This document shows positions 757 to 53,551 of a stretch of DNA of 64,000 bases, piece by piece. Positions within the stretch are counted from its first letter, which is position 1, and each line of letters opens with the position of its first letter. The stretch lies in sequence record MN895436.1; one strand, written 5' to 3'. Below the pieces are notes generated by a model. The model saw only the letters and a list, made by a program, of their open reading frames with translations, searched no databases and had not been told where the DNA came from. The translations under genes were made by a program, and so were the position numbers. This DNA comes from Escherichia phage teqsoen.

Positions 757-947
757 TTTGAATGCTCTATAATTAATTTTAAAGCTTCTTCACTGACAAA
801 AATTTCGTCAGGACCTTCTATAACTTCAACCATACGAAGTTGATTAGTTAAGAGCTCACATACGAGCTCCTTGTTATAATCTTTAAATAGCTGGTCAATA
901 CGTTTCTTATGGGCTTTCTTAAGCTGACGCTTATTTAAACGAGCCAT
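753..947 (-). CDS. hypothetical protein (soc.2 position)
   Basis: 64-aa ORF, start overlaps stop of gene 56. Confidence 0.55.
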   Translation of the reverse strand: MARLNKRQLKKAHKKRIDQLFKDYNKELVCELLTNQLRMVEVIEGPDEIFVSEEALKLIIEHSK

Positions 948-1465
948 TAATAACCTCGGTCTTGACGAGCGAAGTTTTCAGCATTTTTCAGGTAATAAAG
1001 TTTAAAGATTTCTTCAGCTGACATTCCAAGAGCAATAAATTTATTCATGAAAAAATGAAATTGGTCAATAAGTTCAAATTTAATTTCAAGCTGATCTTCG
1101 GGAGATAAATCTTGAATTTTCTTGGATTGCATTTCAGAATAACGTTTCTTCCAAGGTTTCCATACAGCAGAAGCTTCTTTTTCGCCATTACTCATACCAC
1201 CGAGAGAAGTATATAGCTCGCGAGTTTCGTCTGCGATATAATCGTCTTGGTTTCGCAGCCAAGCAAGAACTTCTCCTGCAGTTTCAAGTGAATCAGGATG
1301 ACGATTTGTTTCTGGTTTATCATTAGCCAAACGAATCTGTAAATGCCGCTGCATGTCAAGCATAACCTGCAGTGGGTCAATATTGTGCATAATATTCTCA
1401 GCATATGCACGATTTGCTTTATCAACACCTTCGATCAAATGAGCGCATTCATTAAAGTAAGCCAT
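947..1465 (-). CDS. 56: dCTP/dUTP pyrophosphatase (gene 56)
   Basis: T4 gp56-like from MAYFNECAHLIEG; start set at internal ATG 1465, not the GTG at 1558 of the track. Confidence 0.85.
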   Translation of the reverse strand: MAYFNECAHLIEGVDKANRAYAENIMHNIDPLQVMLDMQRHLQIRLANDKPETNRHPDSLETAGEVLAWLRNQDDYIADETRELYTSLGGMSNGEKEASAVWKPWKKRYSEMQSKKIQDLSPEDQLEIKFELIDQFHFFMNKFIALGMSAEEIFKLYYLKNAENFARQDRGY

Positions 1466-1536
1466 TATTTTTCCTTTCAATTCATGGGTTAGTAGATTAA
1501 TTATACAATAAATATATAAAGCAATAAGGAGGACAT

Positions 1537-1737
1537 ATGGTACAAAAATTAATGGCACTTGTTAATGCCATAAAAGGTAATAAAAAACGTATAGCTTTTA
1601 CTATTTCTGCTATGGTAGGAATTTTACTCTGGAACTTTATTTTATCACCAATTGCAATTGCGCATGGTGTTAATATTCCAGTAGTTACTCTTGATACATT
1701 CGTAGATCTAGCATTTGCTTTAGTTGGGTTAATTTAA
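1537..1737 (+). CDS. small hydrophobic protein
   Basis: 66 aa, two hydrophobic segments, AAGGAGG 6 nt upstream of ATG; plus strand inside a minus-strand early region. Confidence 0.45.
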   Translation: MVQKLMALVNAIKGNKKRIAFTISAMVGILLWNFILSPIAIAHGVNIPVVTLDTFVDLAFALVGLI

Positions 1738-2762
1738 ATCTTGGCATATTTAGATAGCCGCATTTTAGCCATCAACCCCTGGGCAATATTATTTTTCATA
1801 TATTCCATAATTTGTTCAGGGGTTGCACCTTCCTTTCTAATCATATCATTGACATCTTTTGATTTCCAGGGAGATTTATCCCAAAACATAACCCTTTCTC
1901 CTGCATCAACTAATTTAGTCATTCGTTTGATAGTGTCAGGGTGACGAGGTTCATTATCTAAAACCCACACTCGTCTATCTTTAAATGGAACAACTTCTAG
2001 GTCTAATTGACCACCCGTAATAGCTATACCATTTTCAATAAAAAGTGAATCTATAGGTCCTTCTAGAACATATACATCACCATCTTTAACTCGTTCGACT
2101 CCATATATTTTTGTTGCCTCAGGATAAGCTTTAATGGTGATATACTTTTGTGGAGCATCTTTCTTTAATGCGCGTCCTTGAAAAGACTCAGCCTTTCCGT
2201 TAGCATTATAAATTGGAATAACAAGACGAGGCTCAGGTATTTCCTTTTTATATGTTCCCGGTACTATGCTATTAACTAATTTAGGCCATTCGGTTGTAAA
2301 CCAAAGATATTTCCATTTATCCTTTGGAATACAACGAGCTTTTACATATTTTATAATTGGATGGTCTTCCACCAGTTTATCTAATCTAACACATGACGGA
2401 AGAGATTTAATTATTTTCTTCTCAGGATGTTTGGGAAGTTCTTTAGGTTTTTCTACTGGACGACTTTTACCTTTTTCTTTTCTTATTTCAAAGATATACT
2501 CACGATATAAATCAGGTTCAAACTCCTTTAAATATATTCCGATTGGTGCATGATAGTTACAGTTATAACAATGAATATTTCCTTCATTATTATCACCATA
2601 ATACCATCCACGAGCTTTATTCTGGTCGGTTTTTGAATCTCCGCAAACAGGGCATCTAAACCGTAATTTAAAAGTTGAACTATTATTTACTTGTGTGAAT
2701 TTAGGTAAATGAGCTAATGCACGATACGCAAACTCATTATCAATCCAAGGTACTGATGACAT
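1734..2762 (-). CDS. 61: DNA primase (gene 61)
   Basis: 342 aa; Zn-ribbon CPVCGDS...CYNC; N-terminus matches T4 gp61. Confidence 0.93.
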   Translation of the reverse strand: MSSVPWIDNEFAYRALAHLPKFTQVNNSSTFKLRFRCPVCGDSKTDQNKARGWYYGDNNEGNIHCYNCNYHAPIGIYLKEFEPDLYREYIFEIRKEKGKSRPVEKPKELPKHPEKKIIKSLPSCVRLDKLVEDHPIIKYVKARCIPKDKWKYLWFTTEWPKLVNSIVPGTYKKEIPEPRLVIPIYNANGKAESFQGRALKKDAPQKYITIKAYPEATKIYGVERVKDGDVYVLEGPIDSLFIENGIAITGGQLDLEVVPFKDRRVWVLDNEPRHPDTIKRMTKLVDAGERVMFWDKSPWKSKDVNDMIRKEGATPEQIMEYMKNNIAQGLMAKMRLSKYAKI

Positions 2763-2928
2763 TTTTACTCTTCTTTTTCTTTAGATTCCTCTTTTTCTTT
2801 TTAGGAATCTGTTCAGGACCTTTATTTACTACAGCGCCCGACGTTGTTCCAGTAGAGATATTTTCAGGATTACCACCTGAATCTCCAGCTACCATATCTT
2901 CTTTAATAAATTCTTTATATGTTTTCAT
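2740..2928 (-). CDS. small basic protein with capsid-targeting-like N-terminus
   Basis: 62 aa; MKTYKEFIKE then Gly/Thr-rich segment and Lys-rich tail; ATG 4 nt after upstream stop. Confidence 0.5.
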   Translation of the reverse strand: MKTYKEFIKEDMVAGDSGGNPENISTGTTSGAVVNKGPEQIPKKKKRNLKKKKSKNVISTLD

Positions 2929-2974
2929 ATTAACCTCTATTCATAAAAGCATTAAAAATTTGGTCATCAATCGA
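2926..2974. repeat. 49-bp direct repeat copy 1 (gene 3' end + RBS + ATG)
   Basis: 47/49 identical to 3284-3332. Confidence 0.8.
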
Positions 2975-3286
2975 TGGAATAGCAACTTTTTCTGCATCAT
3001 TTAGCAAATCATTAATTTCATCGGATAGCATAACACATGTACCTTTATTTCCTGTAATTGTTACTGCGCAATTACGAACGTTTTCTTTATCAAATTTTAG
3101 GTTAATATTTTCGTAGTGAAAATCCTTTAATGCCGAATATATCTTTAAAATGAAATTGTCTTTTACTACAATAAACCCAACCTCACTATTAAAACGTGGT
3201 TCATGGAAACTGTAATAAACCTTTTCATCTATAAAATCGTATGAAATTTTTTCCATTTTTAAATATGAAAATTCAGAACTATACAT
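2930..3286 (-). CDS. hypothetical protein (61.1 position)
   Basis: 118 aa; C-terminus SIDDQIFNAFMNRG shared with upstream ORF. Confidence 0.6.
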   Translation of the reverse strand: MYSSEFSYLKMEKISYDFIDEKVYYSFHEPRFNSEVGFIVVKDNFILKIYSALKDFHYENINLKFDKENVRNCAVTITGNKGTCVMLSDEINDLLNDAEKVAIPSIDDQIFNAFMNRG

Positions 3287-3332
3287 ATTAACCTTTATTC
3301 ATAAAAGCATTAAAAATTTGGTCATCAATAGA
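3284..3332. repeat. 49-bp direct repeat copy 2
   Basis: 47/49 identical to 2926-2974. Confidence 0.8.
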
Positions 3333-3914
3333 AACATTTACTTTAGACTGTTTTTCTGATGGTAATTCATATCCACATATTACAATTTTGTGATCAATAT
3401 CAAAATACACAGAAGCAATATGATTAATGATGTTTTCAGTAAAGTCTAAATCAACATCAATATCTTTTTGACCACAGCCCAAAGGATAAATAATGCGAGT
3501 AATTCGATTATCTTTAACAAATATTCCACCGACATACTCTGTGCTGCGTTTAAAGTCTACATGCCGACGAAATGAAAAATATTCAGGCTCTCTATGAGCT
3601 CGGCTCATAGGACACAACGAGTAACTAGAATAAGAGATGTCAAATCCTACGCCTTCAATATGAGCCAAAGTGTCATGATTAAACCAATTATAATCGTACG
3701 CCAAATCCATTAGATTATAATATGTAAAAGGCACCGGATTAACATCATTAGTCACAAGCATGTAATTAGCAACTGCTATAATTTCATTGTTTTTAACGAA
3801 TACAAACCGTGATTGATGTGAATGACCTGGACCCACGTTTTCACGATTAATGATATAACACTGGGCACCTTTATATTTGTATGTATCTTTGCATTTGTGC
3901 ATTTGATAGAGCAT
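3288..3914 (-). CDS. hypothetical protein (61.2 position)
   Basis: 208 aa; C-terminus SIDDQIFNAFMNKG; stop/start coupled with sp. Confidence 0.6.
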   Translation of the reverse strand: MLYQMHKCKDTYKYKGAQCYIINRENVGPGHSHQSRFVFVKNNEIIAVANYMLVTNDVNPVPFTYYNLMDLAYDYNWFNHDTLAHIEGVGFDISYSSYSLCPMSRAHREPEYFSFRRHVDFKRSTEYVGGIFVKDNRITRIIYPLGCGQKDIDVDLDFTENIINHIASVYFDIDHKIVICGYELPSEKQSKVNVSIDDQIFNAFMNKG

Positions 3915-4737: not shown

Positions 4738-4767
4738 ACTATACCATAGTCTTGTCAGCTTGTAAAC
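4738..4767 (-). promoter_or_regulatory. early promoter upstream of dmd
   Basis: GTTTAC, 18 nt, TGgTATAGT on minus strand. Confidence 0.7.
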
Positions 4768-6194
4768 TAAAATTTTAATTCATTTGCCAAAGCATCTAAC
4801 TGAGCTCGAGTGGATTCATTTCTTTGATAGCGATTCTGCTCAGCCTGAATCTGTTGTGAACCTGCTACTTCACTCACTTCAGTTGGAGTAGAATCTTGTT
4901 CAATTTCTACCCATTTTTGATTTCCTTTTTGAACACCCATCAAAAACTTATTCCACTTATTCTTATCACCATATCGTGATTTGATTTGCTTAATGAGTTG
5001 CTGTTCAGCAGCTGCTAGCTCCTCGGTTTCAATGACCGCAAGCATAAAATCAGCGGTTGCTGGAAGACCAGCAGATTCTGCAATATCGCTCATGTTAACA
5101 TCGGAAGAGTCCCAAGCTTGTTTACCAACCTGTGCTGCAGTCCAAAGAACAGTTTCGGTTTCAACAGCCAGAGCACGCAATTCCTCTGCGATAGCTTTAA
5201 CAGTTGTGTAACTATTTTCTGAGTAAACTCTAATGCGGCAAGATTTACAAATACCTAGATAGTCGACAATAATGATTGTTGGAACAAAATTCTTCTTGAG
5301 CTTTAATTCATTTAAAAGTGATCGAAATGTATTAGCGTCTGCTCCACCAGTAGGATATTGCTTAACGATTAAACGACCAAGGGTAGATTTCTCACGCCAT
5401 TTTTCCATTTTTCCTTTATATTCAGCGTAAGAAATATGTCCATCATCAATGTCATCAAGAGAAACATCAAGCATGTTAGCGTCAATACGCTTAGCACAGA
5501 CTTCTTCTGCCATTTCCATGGAGATATAAAGAACGTTATGACCAAGCTGCAAATAATCTGCTGCTAATGAACAAAGTCCTAATGATTTACCAACGTTAAC
5601 GCCAGCCATTAAAACGTTCAGTGTTCCAGTTTCAGCTCCGCCTTTAGTAATTTTGTTTAGAATTCTGAGTTTAAATGGAACCTTACGAGCTTTATTCATA
5701 TAAGATAGCCAACGCGCTTCATAGTCATCCATCCAATCATGACCAACGTAGCTATCAAATGAAATTGATAATGCTTGGCGCATGATGTCAGGAATAGCAC
5801 CTACATCTGGCATTTTCTTATTTCGTTTTTCCGGAGGAAGCTCAGCATTAGTTTGAATTTCGATTATTTTAGATGTAGCATTAAACATCGCCCTTTGCTG
5901 AACATATTTTTCTGTTTCTTTTACTAACCAGCTGTGGTCTTCTGGAGAATCAGCCAGTTTTGAAATAAGTGTTTTTACACCAGAATATTCTGTTTCAGTA
6001 AATGAACTATTTTCTAATGCAACATTTAACGCATTAATAGATGGAACGCTATGATACTCATTAACATGAGATTTAATTAATTTGAATGTATTTTTAGCTG
6101 GACCACTTTCAAAATATTCTGAATCCATATATGGCCAAACTTTTGAAAAATAAGCTTGATCAAATATGAGATGAGAAAGAATAATTTCTACCAC
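4767..6194 (-). CDS. 41: replicative DNA helicase (gene 41)
   Basis: 475 aa; DnaB-family Walker A GVNVGKS; T4 gp41 length. Confidence 0.94.
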   Translation of the reverse strand: MVEIILSHLIFDQAYFSKVWPYMDSEYFESGPAKNTFKLIKSHVNEYHSVPSINALNVALENSSFTETEYSGVKTLISKLADSPEDHSWLVKETEKYVQQRAMFNATSKIIEIQTNAELPPEKRNKKMPDVGAIPDIMRQALSISFDSYVGHDWMDDYEARWLSYMNKARKVPFKLRILNKITKGGAETGTLNVLMAGVNVGKSLGLCSLAADYLQLGHNVLYISMEMAEEVCAKRIDANMLDVSLDDIDDGHISYAEYKGKMEKWREKSTLGRLIVKQYPTGGADANTFRSLLNELKLKKNFVPTIIIVDYLGICKSCRIRVYSENSYTTVKAIAEELRALAVETETVLWTAAQVGKQAWDSSDVNMSDIAESAGLPATADFMLAVIETEELAAAEQQLIKQIKSRYGDKNKWNKFLMGVQKGNQKWVEIEQDSTPTEVSEVAGSQQIQAEQNRYQRNESTRAQLDALANELKF

Positions 6195-47699: not shown

Positions 47700-48017
47700 T
47701 TATTCTTTAGGAAAATTTTTAGAATATGCGTCGTAAAGCTTATTTCCAATACGACGAAAAACTCTAGCTGCAAAACGATTTTCTGGGTTTTTAATCATAA
47801 TTTGCATCATATAAGTACCCGCGTCTGAAAGAGCTTCTTCATAGTACCCGTTAATTTCTTTAAGAGTCCTACGTTTACCACCAGGACCATCAACAGTGAT
47901 TTTCCATTTACCTGTAGAAGTGCGACTCGGCGGCTCAACTTGTTCAATCCAAATATAACCGCCTTCTACACGTTGTCCTGCAGCAGATTCTGCAATAAAT
48001 TCTTGATATGTTTTCAT
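47700..48017 (-). CDS. internal protein with capsid targeting sequence
   Basis: 105 aa; N-terminus MKTYQEFIAES. Confidence 0.7.
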   Translation of the reverse strand: MKTYQEFIAESAAGQRVEGGYIWIEQVEPPSRTSTGKWKITVDGPGGKRRTLKEINGYYEEALSDAGTYMMQIMIKNPENRFAARVFRRIGNKLYDAYSKNFPKE

Positions 48018-53077: not shown

Positions 53078-53551
53078 TTATTTGATTTGTTTAGCAGACC
53101 AAATGCGGTCTTTGATAATTTTTTGGATGTCTTCAACATACTCAAGAGAGTGAACATGTGGATTATCTTTGAAACTATGAGCTCGCGCAAGTTTCTGGCC
53201 TTCAGTTTTGATTACTAAAAGCTCTTTAAGGATAGCTTCATATTTGGAGATAATTCCTTTAACAATATTTTTCTCTTGTGCGACTTTAGGATCTGCTTTA
53301 GGAGCAGGTTTACCCGAAGCCTTTGCAAAAGCAGCGCCAGTAGCAACTAAACTTTTCCAGGCCATACTAACTGCATTTCCCGTAAATCCTTCCGCTTTCA
53401 TGTCGCGTGCGAACTGGAATCGCGATTCATCAGAAGCATCTTTATAGGAATATTTACCCGCTGCAATGGCTGCTTTTGCGACAGCTTGAATTTCGGTGCT
53501 AGATGCTTCATTTAACACCGCTTCATTTAAAAATTGAGTATATGATTTCAT
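53078..53551 (-). CDS. protein with capsid-targeting-like N-terminus
   Basis: 157 aa; N-terminus MKSYTQFLNEA; Ala/Lys-rich; TATAAATA upstream. Confidence 0.65.
   Translation of the reverse strand: MKSYTQFLNEAVLNEASSTEIQAVAKAAIAAGKYSYKDASDESRFQFARDMKAEGFTGNAVSMAWKSLVATGAAFAKASGKPAPKADPKVAQEKNIVKGIISKYEAILKELLVIKTEGQKLARAHSFKDNPHVHSLEYVEDIQKIIKDRIWSAKQIK

Follow-up and report, generated by a model that had tools for sequence, protein, structure and literature searches.

Why should a small protein with the N-terminus of an internal head protein be encoded beside the DNA primase gene of a T4-like phage? The question is raised by an open reading frame (ORF) on the minus strand of Escherichia phage teqsoen (sequence record MN895436.1), of which a stretch of 64,000 nucleotides, here called the window, was analysed; the window is that of a Tequatrovirus (T4-like) genome. 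An original prediction, made from the sequence of the window, had described a protein of 62 residues starting MKTYKEFIKE, with a leader like the capsid targeting sequence (CTS) of T4 internal head proteins, followed by a Gly/Thr-rich stretch and a Lys-rich tail. The ORF is present as quoted (full protein MKTYKEFIKEDMVAGDSGGNPENISTGTTSGAVVNKGPEQIPKKKKRNLKKKKSKNVISTLD), and the description of its surroundings was accurate: it overlaps the start of gene 61 by 23 nt, its ATG (2928-2926) is separated by 1 nt from the upstream TAA (2932-2930), whose first base lies 4 nt away, and it begins in one copy of a 49-nt direct repeat. Our results show that this ORF is gene 61.1 and that its core very likely corresponds to the maturation cleavage site and N-fist of the capsid protein gp23; its product is a probable CTS-bearing component of the prohead that would be processed by the prohead protease gp21.

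On sequence comparison, we regard it as virtually certain that the ORF is the orthologue of T4 gene 61.1 and that it carries a 1-nt frameshift allele. The homology search proposed with the original prediction returned phrog_1823 at an E-value of 3.8e-32 (residues 1-53 of 54 profile positions), and relatives were found at 95-98% identity. The original prediction knew of no CTS protein at this locus in T4, but T4 does have gene 61.1 there, directly upstream of gene 61; its product (NP_049649, UniProt P39228) has 54 amino acids, starts MKTFKEFIKE and differs from the window protein by only two substitutions through residue 46. Phage RB32 likewise annotates a 54-residue gp61.1 at the same place. 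The exact protein of 62 residues is in GenBank as QHR63884.1 (Escherichia phage teqsoen), in a cluster that also contains phages T6, U115 and Shinka.

The resemblance of the leader to a CTS, as judged from sequence comparison, is beyond chance and lies within the natural variation of T4 internal-protein CTSs. A six-frame scan of the whole window with the pattern MKT[YF]x[ED][FLY][IVL]x[ED] matched four ORFs only, namely 61.1 and three that lie at the internal-protein loci. Two of these three (157 and 77 amino acids) belong to PHROG internal virion protein families and the third (105 amino acids, 47700-48017) to an unnamed PHROG family; an 85-residue neighbour at these loci with the looser match MKTFKEFATK is an internal head protein. 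The 61.1 leader is identical in 8 of 10 residues to each of MKTYQEFIAE, MKTYQEFITE and MKTFKEFIAE, the leaders of the three matching ORFs, and the first 30 nt of the gene are 27/30 and 26/30 identical to those of two of them. All of the substitutions except K9 are found in the internal-protein-locus leaders, and position 9 itself varies there (A or T). Read from the sequence, the leader also ends in a gp21-type (L/I)-x-E motif, I8-K9-E10. The CTS of 10 amino acids alone is sufficient to bring foreign proteins into the scaffolding core, after which gp21 removes it (PMC10229621; PMC3012670), and gp21 cleaves after Glu in the motif I/L-x-E (PMC12991175). A further ORF of 157 amino acids in the window (53078-53551, minus strand; phrog_2280, of unknown function) starts with the CTS-like MKSYTQFLNE, with L-N-E at positions 8-10, and has an exact late-promoter octamer, TATAAATA, at 53599-53592, approximately 41 nt upstream. 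We consider this ORF to be another candidate, on sequence features, for a head-targeted protein outside the named internal-protein genes.

The Gly/Thr-rich stretch of the original prediction is also real and forms the conserved core of the family, but its relationship to gp23 had been missed. It was a database name, 'Major capsid domain-containing protein', that prompted our comparison with gp23, and this comparison makes it very likely that gp61.1 is homologous to the gp23 maturation site and N-fist. By BLASTP, residues 2-38 of T4 gp61.1 align with gp23 residues 57-93 with 17/37 identities (E 6e-9). The Smith-Waterman score against gp23 is 82, as compared to 29.2 +/- 4.5 (maximum 61) for 5000 shuffles (z of about 11), and the core without its leader scores 69 against a shuffled 26.5 +/- 3.8. 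Profile-profile comparison (hhalign) gives probabilities of 95.9% for the short form and 96.2% for the long form of the protein (the two forms are described below), with alignments that reach gp23 residues 55-102. In an hmmsearch profile search of all 177,635 distinct PDB sequences, gp23 was the sole significant match, whether the query was the short form (E 8.2e-6) or the long form (E 2.2e-6). When 1.84 billion representatives were searched exhaustively with the profile, 50 family clusters were recovered and no gp23 at E<=1e-3; hence, the link is significant only in smaller search spaces, i.e., the PDB, the phage's own proteins and the profile-profile comparison.

The register of the alignment places the Glu10-Asp11 bond of gp61.1 on the Glu65-Ala66 bond of gp23, which is the known maturation site, and the shared pattern can be written, with a slash at this bond, as F-x-x-F-[LI]-x-E / x-x-[IV]-x-G-D-x-G-x-N-x-x-N-I-[AS]-x-G-x-T-S-G-A-V-x-x-x-G-P. 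Maturation cleavage of gp23 occurs at residue 65 (PMC9546572). Residues 66-105 are internal in the unexpanded head, where they probably sit on the scaffold, and go on to become the N-fist and N-arm (PMC9546572; PMC9958956); the N-fist itself (gp23* residues 66-90) is disordered in the prohead, is externalised on expansion, contacts four subunits and is part of the Soc site (PMC9546572; PMC9958956). The head-length (ptg) mutations A66D, A94V and G97S map to the N-fist and just downstream of it (PMC9546572). The similarity is invisible to Pfam because the current Gp23 model, PF07068, covers gp23 residues 88-517 and leaves out the N-fist and propeptide. The 62-residue protein had no Pfam match at E<=1, the HK97-fold model included, and it lacks the HK97-fold body (A and P domains and E-loop) as defined by PF07068; therefore, it cannot be a shell subunit.

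Gene 61.1 is not confined to the T-even phages. We collected the family from 42 IMG/VR loci and from the 50 clusters recovered among the 1.84 billion representatives, and tblastn found it in 1470 phage records, with hosts including Escherichia, Klebsiella, Acinetobacter, Aeromonas and Vibrio, as well as others. The primase gene lies directly downstream in 42/42 related loci examined by tblastn, and the same order is present in phage PX29 and in a KVP40-type phage. There are two forms of the protein. The short form has 50-60 amino acids and a leader of the type K-[TS]-[FY]-x-[ED]-F; the long form (phrog_2086) has about 154 amino acids, of which some 105 make up an N-terminal domain that precedes the same C-terminal module, as in Aeromonas phage PX29 gp61.1, Acj9 61.1 and a KVP40-type protein of 159 amino acids. 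The long form is probably ancestral because it is the widespread form. The ancestor may have been a late protein of around 155 amino acids, as in most other T4-like genera, with a helical N-terminal domain ahead of an [LIFMV]-x-Glu junction and the module, and the T-even lineage would then have replaced the helical domain with a CTS of 10 residues. In 160 of 162 distinct members, a Glu precedes the M-V-A-G-D core by one or two residues, and position P3 is L, I, F, M or V in 142 of the 160 members with this junction Glu; the resulting motif, [LIFMV]-x-E, is of the gp21 type and also marks the junction of the long form.

Structure prediction gives a similar division. In the AlphaFold model of the long form, the N-terminal domain is helical (pLDDT 77-90) and the module is disordered (pLDDT below 50), and the model of the short form has no fold (pLDDT 61, pTM 0.18). 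The short gp61.1, according to these models, is a protein without a fold of its own, a chain of linear motifs comprising the leader, an N-fist-like segment and a Lys/Arg patch. Neither form had a family match in Pfam or NCBIfam. A Foldseek search of the PDB with the long-form N-terminal domain gave no significant match, and comparison with gp67, gp68, gp22, gp21 and gp20 found no relationship of this domain to any of them. Against BFVD, the long-form model matched only family members and a few longer unnamed proteins: A0A411BBR2 (672 amino acids), A0A1B1IT15 (913), A0A7S5R3P1 (387) and A0A6J7WVK5 (396). These four have 25-37% identity over 110-158 columns and, going by the models, might be fusions, e.g., with primase or cargo domains. 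Four metagenomic relatives (P0039, P0052, P0054 and P0057; P0039 and P0052 are of 247-251 amino acids) have the long-form module followed by a second CTS-like stretch containing MNEVSNFKQFVEGLE and a domain of about 90 amino acids; from their sequences, they look like 61.1 fused to a downstream internal-protein-like gene.

A very short ORF without a fold could be a relic of a partial duplication of gene 23 or of an internal-protein gene, with no protein function, whose DNA is kept for the expression signals of gene 61. The failure to detect gp61.1 in the T4 proteome and the tolerance of its C-terminus to a frameshift both fit such a relic. Selection on the core does not. In 34 distinct DNA sequences of the core, the mean proportion of nonsynonymous differences (pN) was 0.121 and that of synonymous differences (pS) 0.660, indicating strong purifying selection; the ranges were 0.07-0.17 for pN and 0.5-0.9 for pS, with synonymous sites near saturation. 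The core is also better conserved than the adjoining, essential primase (72-84% as against 59-63% identity to Tequatrovirus), and the frameshift leaves intact everything through the conserved basic patch. We consider a relic without protein function to be extremely improbable.

The exact T4 late promoter TATAAATA is present 21-35 nt upstream of the 61.1 start in at least five non-Tequatrovirus lineages. In Tequatrovirus, genes of the adfA type abut the start of 61.1, and the sequence TATGAATA occupies the position equivalent to that of TATAAATA in the other genera. This sequence is found in both copies of the 49-nt repeat (2938-2945 and 3296-3303, minus strand) and is probably a relic of the late promoter that now encodes the F-M-N-[RK]-G that precedes the stop codon of the upstream gene. 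The late promoter expected for CTS-bearing internal head proteins is found ahead of 61.1 in other genera and is missing from that position in the window. The nearest good match to a promoter that could, by its sequence, drive dmd-61.4-sp-61.2-61.1-61 is of the sigma-70 type and lies upstream of dmd. One time-resolved study of T4 classed the 61.1 RNA as 'early' and left the protein unclassified. However, ipI, ipII and ipIII were classed in the same study as 'early RNA, late protein', so that early transcription of 61.1 is no argument against a role in the head.

Early transcription is, nonetheless, one of several points that favour a cytoplasmic function. An unpackaged gp61.1 could act as a mimic or decoy that copies the gp23 cleavage site and N-fist and titrates something that binds this part of gp23. 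Candidate targets are gp21 (for which it would be a pseudo-substrate or regulator), the scaffold protein gp22 (in which case the control of head length would be involved), a chaperone, and an immune sensor by which the host responds to capsid protein or to prohead-protease activity. In Tequatrovirus, 61.1 comes last in a row of accessory and counter-defence genes (dmd, 61.4, sp and adfA); the module is predicted to be disordered, as a competing peptide would be; hosts are able to sense both gp23 (Lit/Gol) and gp21 activity (the tripwire loop of the CBASS protein EcCdnG, with an LPE motif); and head length is affected by this region of gp23, as the ptg mutations A66D, A94V and G97S demonstrate. 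The Gol peptide of gp23, at about residues 93-122, begins where the homologous stretch ends and would therefore not be copied by gp61.1. Counter-defence genes tend to have a patchy distribution, whereas the 61.1 family is kept beside primase in phages of Escherichia, Klebsiella, Acinetobacter, Aeromonas and Vibrio whatever the accessory neighbours. The late promoters of several genera and the lack of co-variation with the cognate gp23 (see below) also speak against a decoy, and we consider this explanation rather unlikely, though one to be taken seriously.

The Lys-rich tail had led to the proposal, in the original prediction, that the protein binds nucleic acid. Our results indicate that this tail is the product of a single-nucleotide deletion. 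DNA alignment of T4 and RB32 (AAAAAGAAAAAAG) with the window (AAAAAGAAAAAG) reveals one A fewer in the window, in the second A-run at 2792-2796, which has 5 A as compared to 6 in both T4 and RB32. As a consequence, the canonical ending KKKKEESKEKEE is changed to KKKKRNLKKKKSKNVISTLD in the window; the reading frame departs after KKKK into RNLKKKKSKNVISTLD and a stop, while the canonical protein has the C-terminus PKKKKEESKEKEE (EESKEKEE in T4) and ends two bases before the primase ATG, as in T4 and RB32. With a 101-nt query across the deletion site, 438 phage records were matched, of which 432 keep the extra A and only 6 have the window-length allele: T6 (3 records from two independent sequencing projects), vB_EcoM-G28 (2) and G2540-3. 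The deletion allele or the 62-residue form is common to T6, G28, G2540-3, teqsoen and U115. A sequencing error was ruled out as the cause of the frameshift, as T6 was sequenced twice independently and the allele is found in several other isolates. Programmed frameshifting or transcriptional slippage at the A5-G-A5/A6 sequence was also rejected because each form is an allele fixed in the DNA, the two occurring in different phages, because the runs are short and because the heptamer is not in the register that a -1 slip would require. The Lys-rich tail is accordingly the product of an allele that is genuine but rare, and it is not a feature of the family; a length of 50-56 amino acids and a short mixed-charge tail that stops ahead of the gene 61 ATG would be expected of a phrog_1823 member.

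The net charge of the protein changes accordingly with the allele. The window protein has a net charge of +7 (pI 9.9), the canonical gp61.1 of T4 and RB32 has a net charge of -1 (pI 5.5) and the RB69-like and RB49-like forms are neutral. The only basic element conserved across the family is a short K-K-[KR]-K patch; neither a conserved positive charge nor a known nucleic-acid-binding motif was found in the family by charge calculation and the Pfam and NCBIfam scans. A replisome accessory peptide, whose Lys-rich region binds DNA or RNA and which works with the helicase gp41 and the primase gp61, would nevertheless explain the invariant synteny (41 ... 61.1-61), the conservation of the patch, the basic character of the long-form C-terminal peptides (+5) and the stop/start arrangement with gene 61, which suggests translational coupling. 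In the T6-type allele, the frameshift would do away with such coupling. The replisome explanation is difficult to reconcile with a long Lys tail that arose by frameshift and occurs in about 1% of records, with a canonical T-even protein that is net acidic, with a Gly/Thr/Ser-rich core that is homologous to a capsid protein and to no nucleic-acid-binding family, and with late promoters in several genera. We therefore regard a replisome peptide as quite improbable.

The explanation that we favour is one in which gp61.1, like IPI-III and gp23, would be drawn into the scaffolding core as the prohead assembles and would be cut there by gp21 after Glu10. Cleavage would free an N-fist-like peptide with a basic patch, of about 44 amino acids (52 in teqsoen), which may stay with the DNA or the shell or may compete with the gp23 N-terminal region for partners. 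Based on the sequence, we would give targeting of gp61.1 to the prohead and cleavage after Glu10 an even chance. Several observations weigh against it. The late promoter is missing in this genome: from 2928 to 41850 (39 kb), the minus strand has no exact TATAAATA, and other Tequatrovirus genomes are alike in this respect. The gene is located in the early primase/helicase cluster, outside the head-gene and internal-protein loci. The T4 protein (P39228) is missing from the intensity table of the time-resolved T4 proteome, in which gp61.2 and Sp are present; this absence is a weak negative because a standard search would overlook a product cut by gp21, which would be semi-tryptic. The list of T4 prohead core components does not include gp61.1 (PMC9546572), and no such peptide is reported from high-resolution T4 capsid maps, only an unassigned helical density under gp24* (PMC9546572). 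Finally, there was no co-variation of the 61.1 module with the cognate gp23 N-fist in T4, PX29, Acj9 and four IMG/VR genomes, with 13-16 of 28 identities in every pairing, so that neither ongoing gene conversion nor tight co-evolution is supported.

It is also conceivable, though we think it distinctly unlikely, that gp61.1 serves the T4-like phages of several bacterial genera as a free N-fist and cleavage site acting in trans, with or without processing by gp21. Such a protein might dock in the N-fist or scaffold sites of gp23 and so tune prohead assembly, expansion or head length; it might fill N-fist sites that are empty around the gp24 and portal vertices; or it might be a pseudo-substrate that buffers gp21 away from host tripwires, e.g., the activation loop of a CBASS CD-NTase.

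Comparison with known head proteins helps to define what a processed gp61.1 would be. With IPI, IPII and IPIII it shares the MKT[YF][QK]EFIxE leader, the Glu at position 10, similarity at the DNA level and the early RNA class. It differs from them in lying outside the hypervariable internal-protein loci and in lacking a late promoter in Tequatrovirus; its cargo would be a peptide of 44-52 amino acids, predicted to be disordered, rather than a folded anti-restriction protein, and its family is strongly conserved across genera whereas the internal proteins are hypervariable. With gp23 it shares homology over residues of about 55-101 (the end of the propeptide, Glu65-Ala66, the N-fist and the start of the N-arm), with the cleavage positions in register, but it has no HK97-fold body and no match to the Pfam Gp23 model. 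The long-form gp61.1 likewise lies upstream of primase and shares the module and the [LIFMV]-x-E junction, and differs in having a helical N-terminal domain of some 105 residues instead of the 10-residue CTS and, often, an exact late promoter. If processed as proposed, gp61.1 would join the class of small, gp21-processed proteins of the head interior formed by gp67, gp68 and peptides II and VII (from gp22). There is no detectable sequence relationship to these proteins (gp68 E 0.015 in an 11-sequence database; gp67 and gp22 not significant), and their genes are in the late head-gene cluster.

Coordinates of gene 61.1, its parts and its neighbours in the window
Feature	Position	Strand	Basis or remark
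Gene 61.1 orthologue, T6/teqsoen-type 62-aa allele	2740..2928	minus	ORF list, phrog_1823, T4 and RB32 alignment
CTS-like leader MKTYKEFIKE, codons 1-10	2899..2928	minus	ends I-K-E; predicted gp21 cut after Glu10
Conserved core DMVAGDSGGNPENISTGTTSGAVVNKGP, codons 11-38	2815..2898	minus	homologous to gp23* N-fist (gp23 residues 66-93), very likely
KKKK, codons 43-46, conserved basic patch	2791..2802	minus	sequence and DNA alignment
Frameshifted tail RNLKKKKSKNVISTLD and stop	2740..2790	minus	in place of canonical EESKEKEE and stop; DNA alignment with T4 and RB32
Tryptic peptide of gp61.1			EDMVAGDSGGNPENISIGTTSGAVVNK
Overlap of 61.1 extended frame and gene 61 start	2740..2762	minus	23 nt
Gene 61 (DNA primase), immediate downstream neighbour	1734..2762	minus	ATG 2762-2760
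TATGAATA, probable late-promoter relic with one mismatch	2945-2938	minus	in last codons of upstream ORF; followed by GAGG ribosome-binding site (Shine-Dalgarno of 61.1), 2937-2934
49-nt direct repeat	2926-2974 (copy 1), 3284-3332 (copy 2)		96% identical
118-aa ORF, paralogue of AdfA/gp61.2 C-terminal half	2930..3286	minus	Pfam PF23813 E 2.3e-8
Gene 61.2 = adfA (anti-DarT factor A)	3288..3914	minus	Pfam PF23813 E 1.7e-134
Sigma-70-type early promoter upstream of dmd	4738..4766	minus	TTTACA-17-TATAGT with TG, 10/12; consensus match only
Gene 41, first in the order 41, dmd, 61.4, sp, 61.2, 118-aa ORF, 61.1, 61, 56	4767-6194	minus	

The neighbourhood of the gene (see table) accounts for the repeat in which it begins. 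Each copy of the 49-nt repeat consists of the last 14 codons of adfA or of its paralogue of 118 amino acids, together with the ribosome-binding site and ATG of the following gene; the repeat is no regulatory element. Residues 22-118 of the paralogue match positions 113-211 of the PF23813 profile. The paralogue is not present in T4, is ORF033c in RB32 and may, judging from its sequence, be a truncated anti-DarT factor or a decoy. Downstream of primase, a hydrophobic ORF of 66 amino acids (1537-1737, plus strand; RB69ORF029w-like in RB32) lies between genes 56 and 61 at the position occupied by dam in T4; hence, dam is not at this locus in teqsoen. The equivalent of this ORF is labelled 'putative head morphogenesis protein' in the T6 record AP018814, apparently through annotation transfer. 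The mechanically called ORF of gene 56 (dCTPase; 947-1558, minus strand) has a GTG start that adds a hydrophobic extension of 31 residues; the true start is almost certainly the ATG that gives MAYFNE and a protein of 172 amino acids, as in RB32.

Gene 61.1 itself is already known, being annotated in hundreds of genomes, and automated names echo its capsid similarity. Names such as 'major capsid (domain-containing) protein' and 'head morphogenesis protein' on 61.1 ORFs of 50-160 amino acids reflect a real but partial homology and are misleading; the 'major capsid' names probably stem from an earlier or different model than the current PF07068. In the searchable literature, which does not extend to older subscription papers, gp61.1 appeared only as table entries, and no statement was found of the CTS leader, of the in-register homology to the gp23 cleavage site and N-fist or of the long and short forms. 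For annotation, the lesson is that the Lys-rich tail of T6-type phages is a frameshift allele and not a motif.

The assembly of the T4 head is a textbook subject, its list of parts being regarded as essentially complete, and gene 61.1 has been carried as 'hypothetical' since completion of the T4 genome. If our proposal is wrong, then 61.1 remains an ordinary conserved hypothetical gene. If it is correct, the prohead protease has one more small substrate, encoded by T4-like phages of several genera. The part of gp23 with which gp61.1 is aligned probably touches the scaffold first and later locks capsomers and helps to bind Soc, and gp61.1 would then be a new component or regulator of capsid maturation, previously unrecognised in the most-studied phage head. 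It would also follow that the 10-residue CTS, which is used to engineer T4 nanoparticles, is similar to the segment that immediately precedes the gp23 cleavage site, and that the CTS and this pre-cleavage segment of gp23 may be evolutionarily related.

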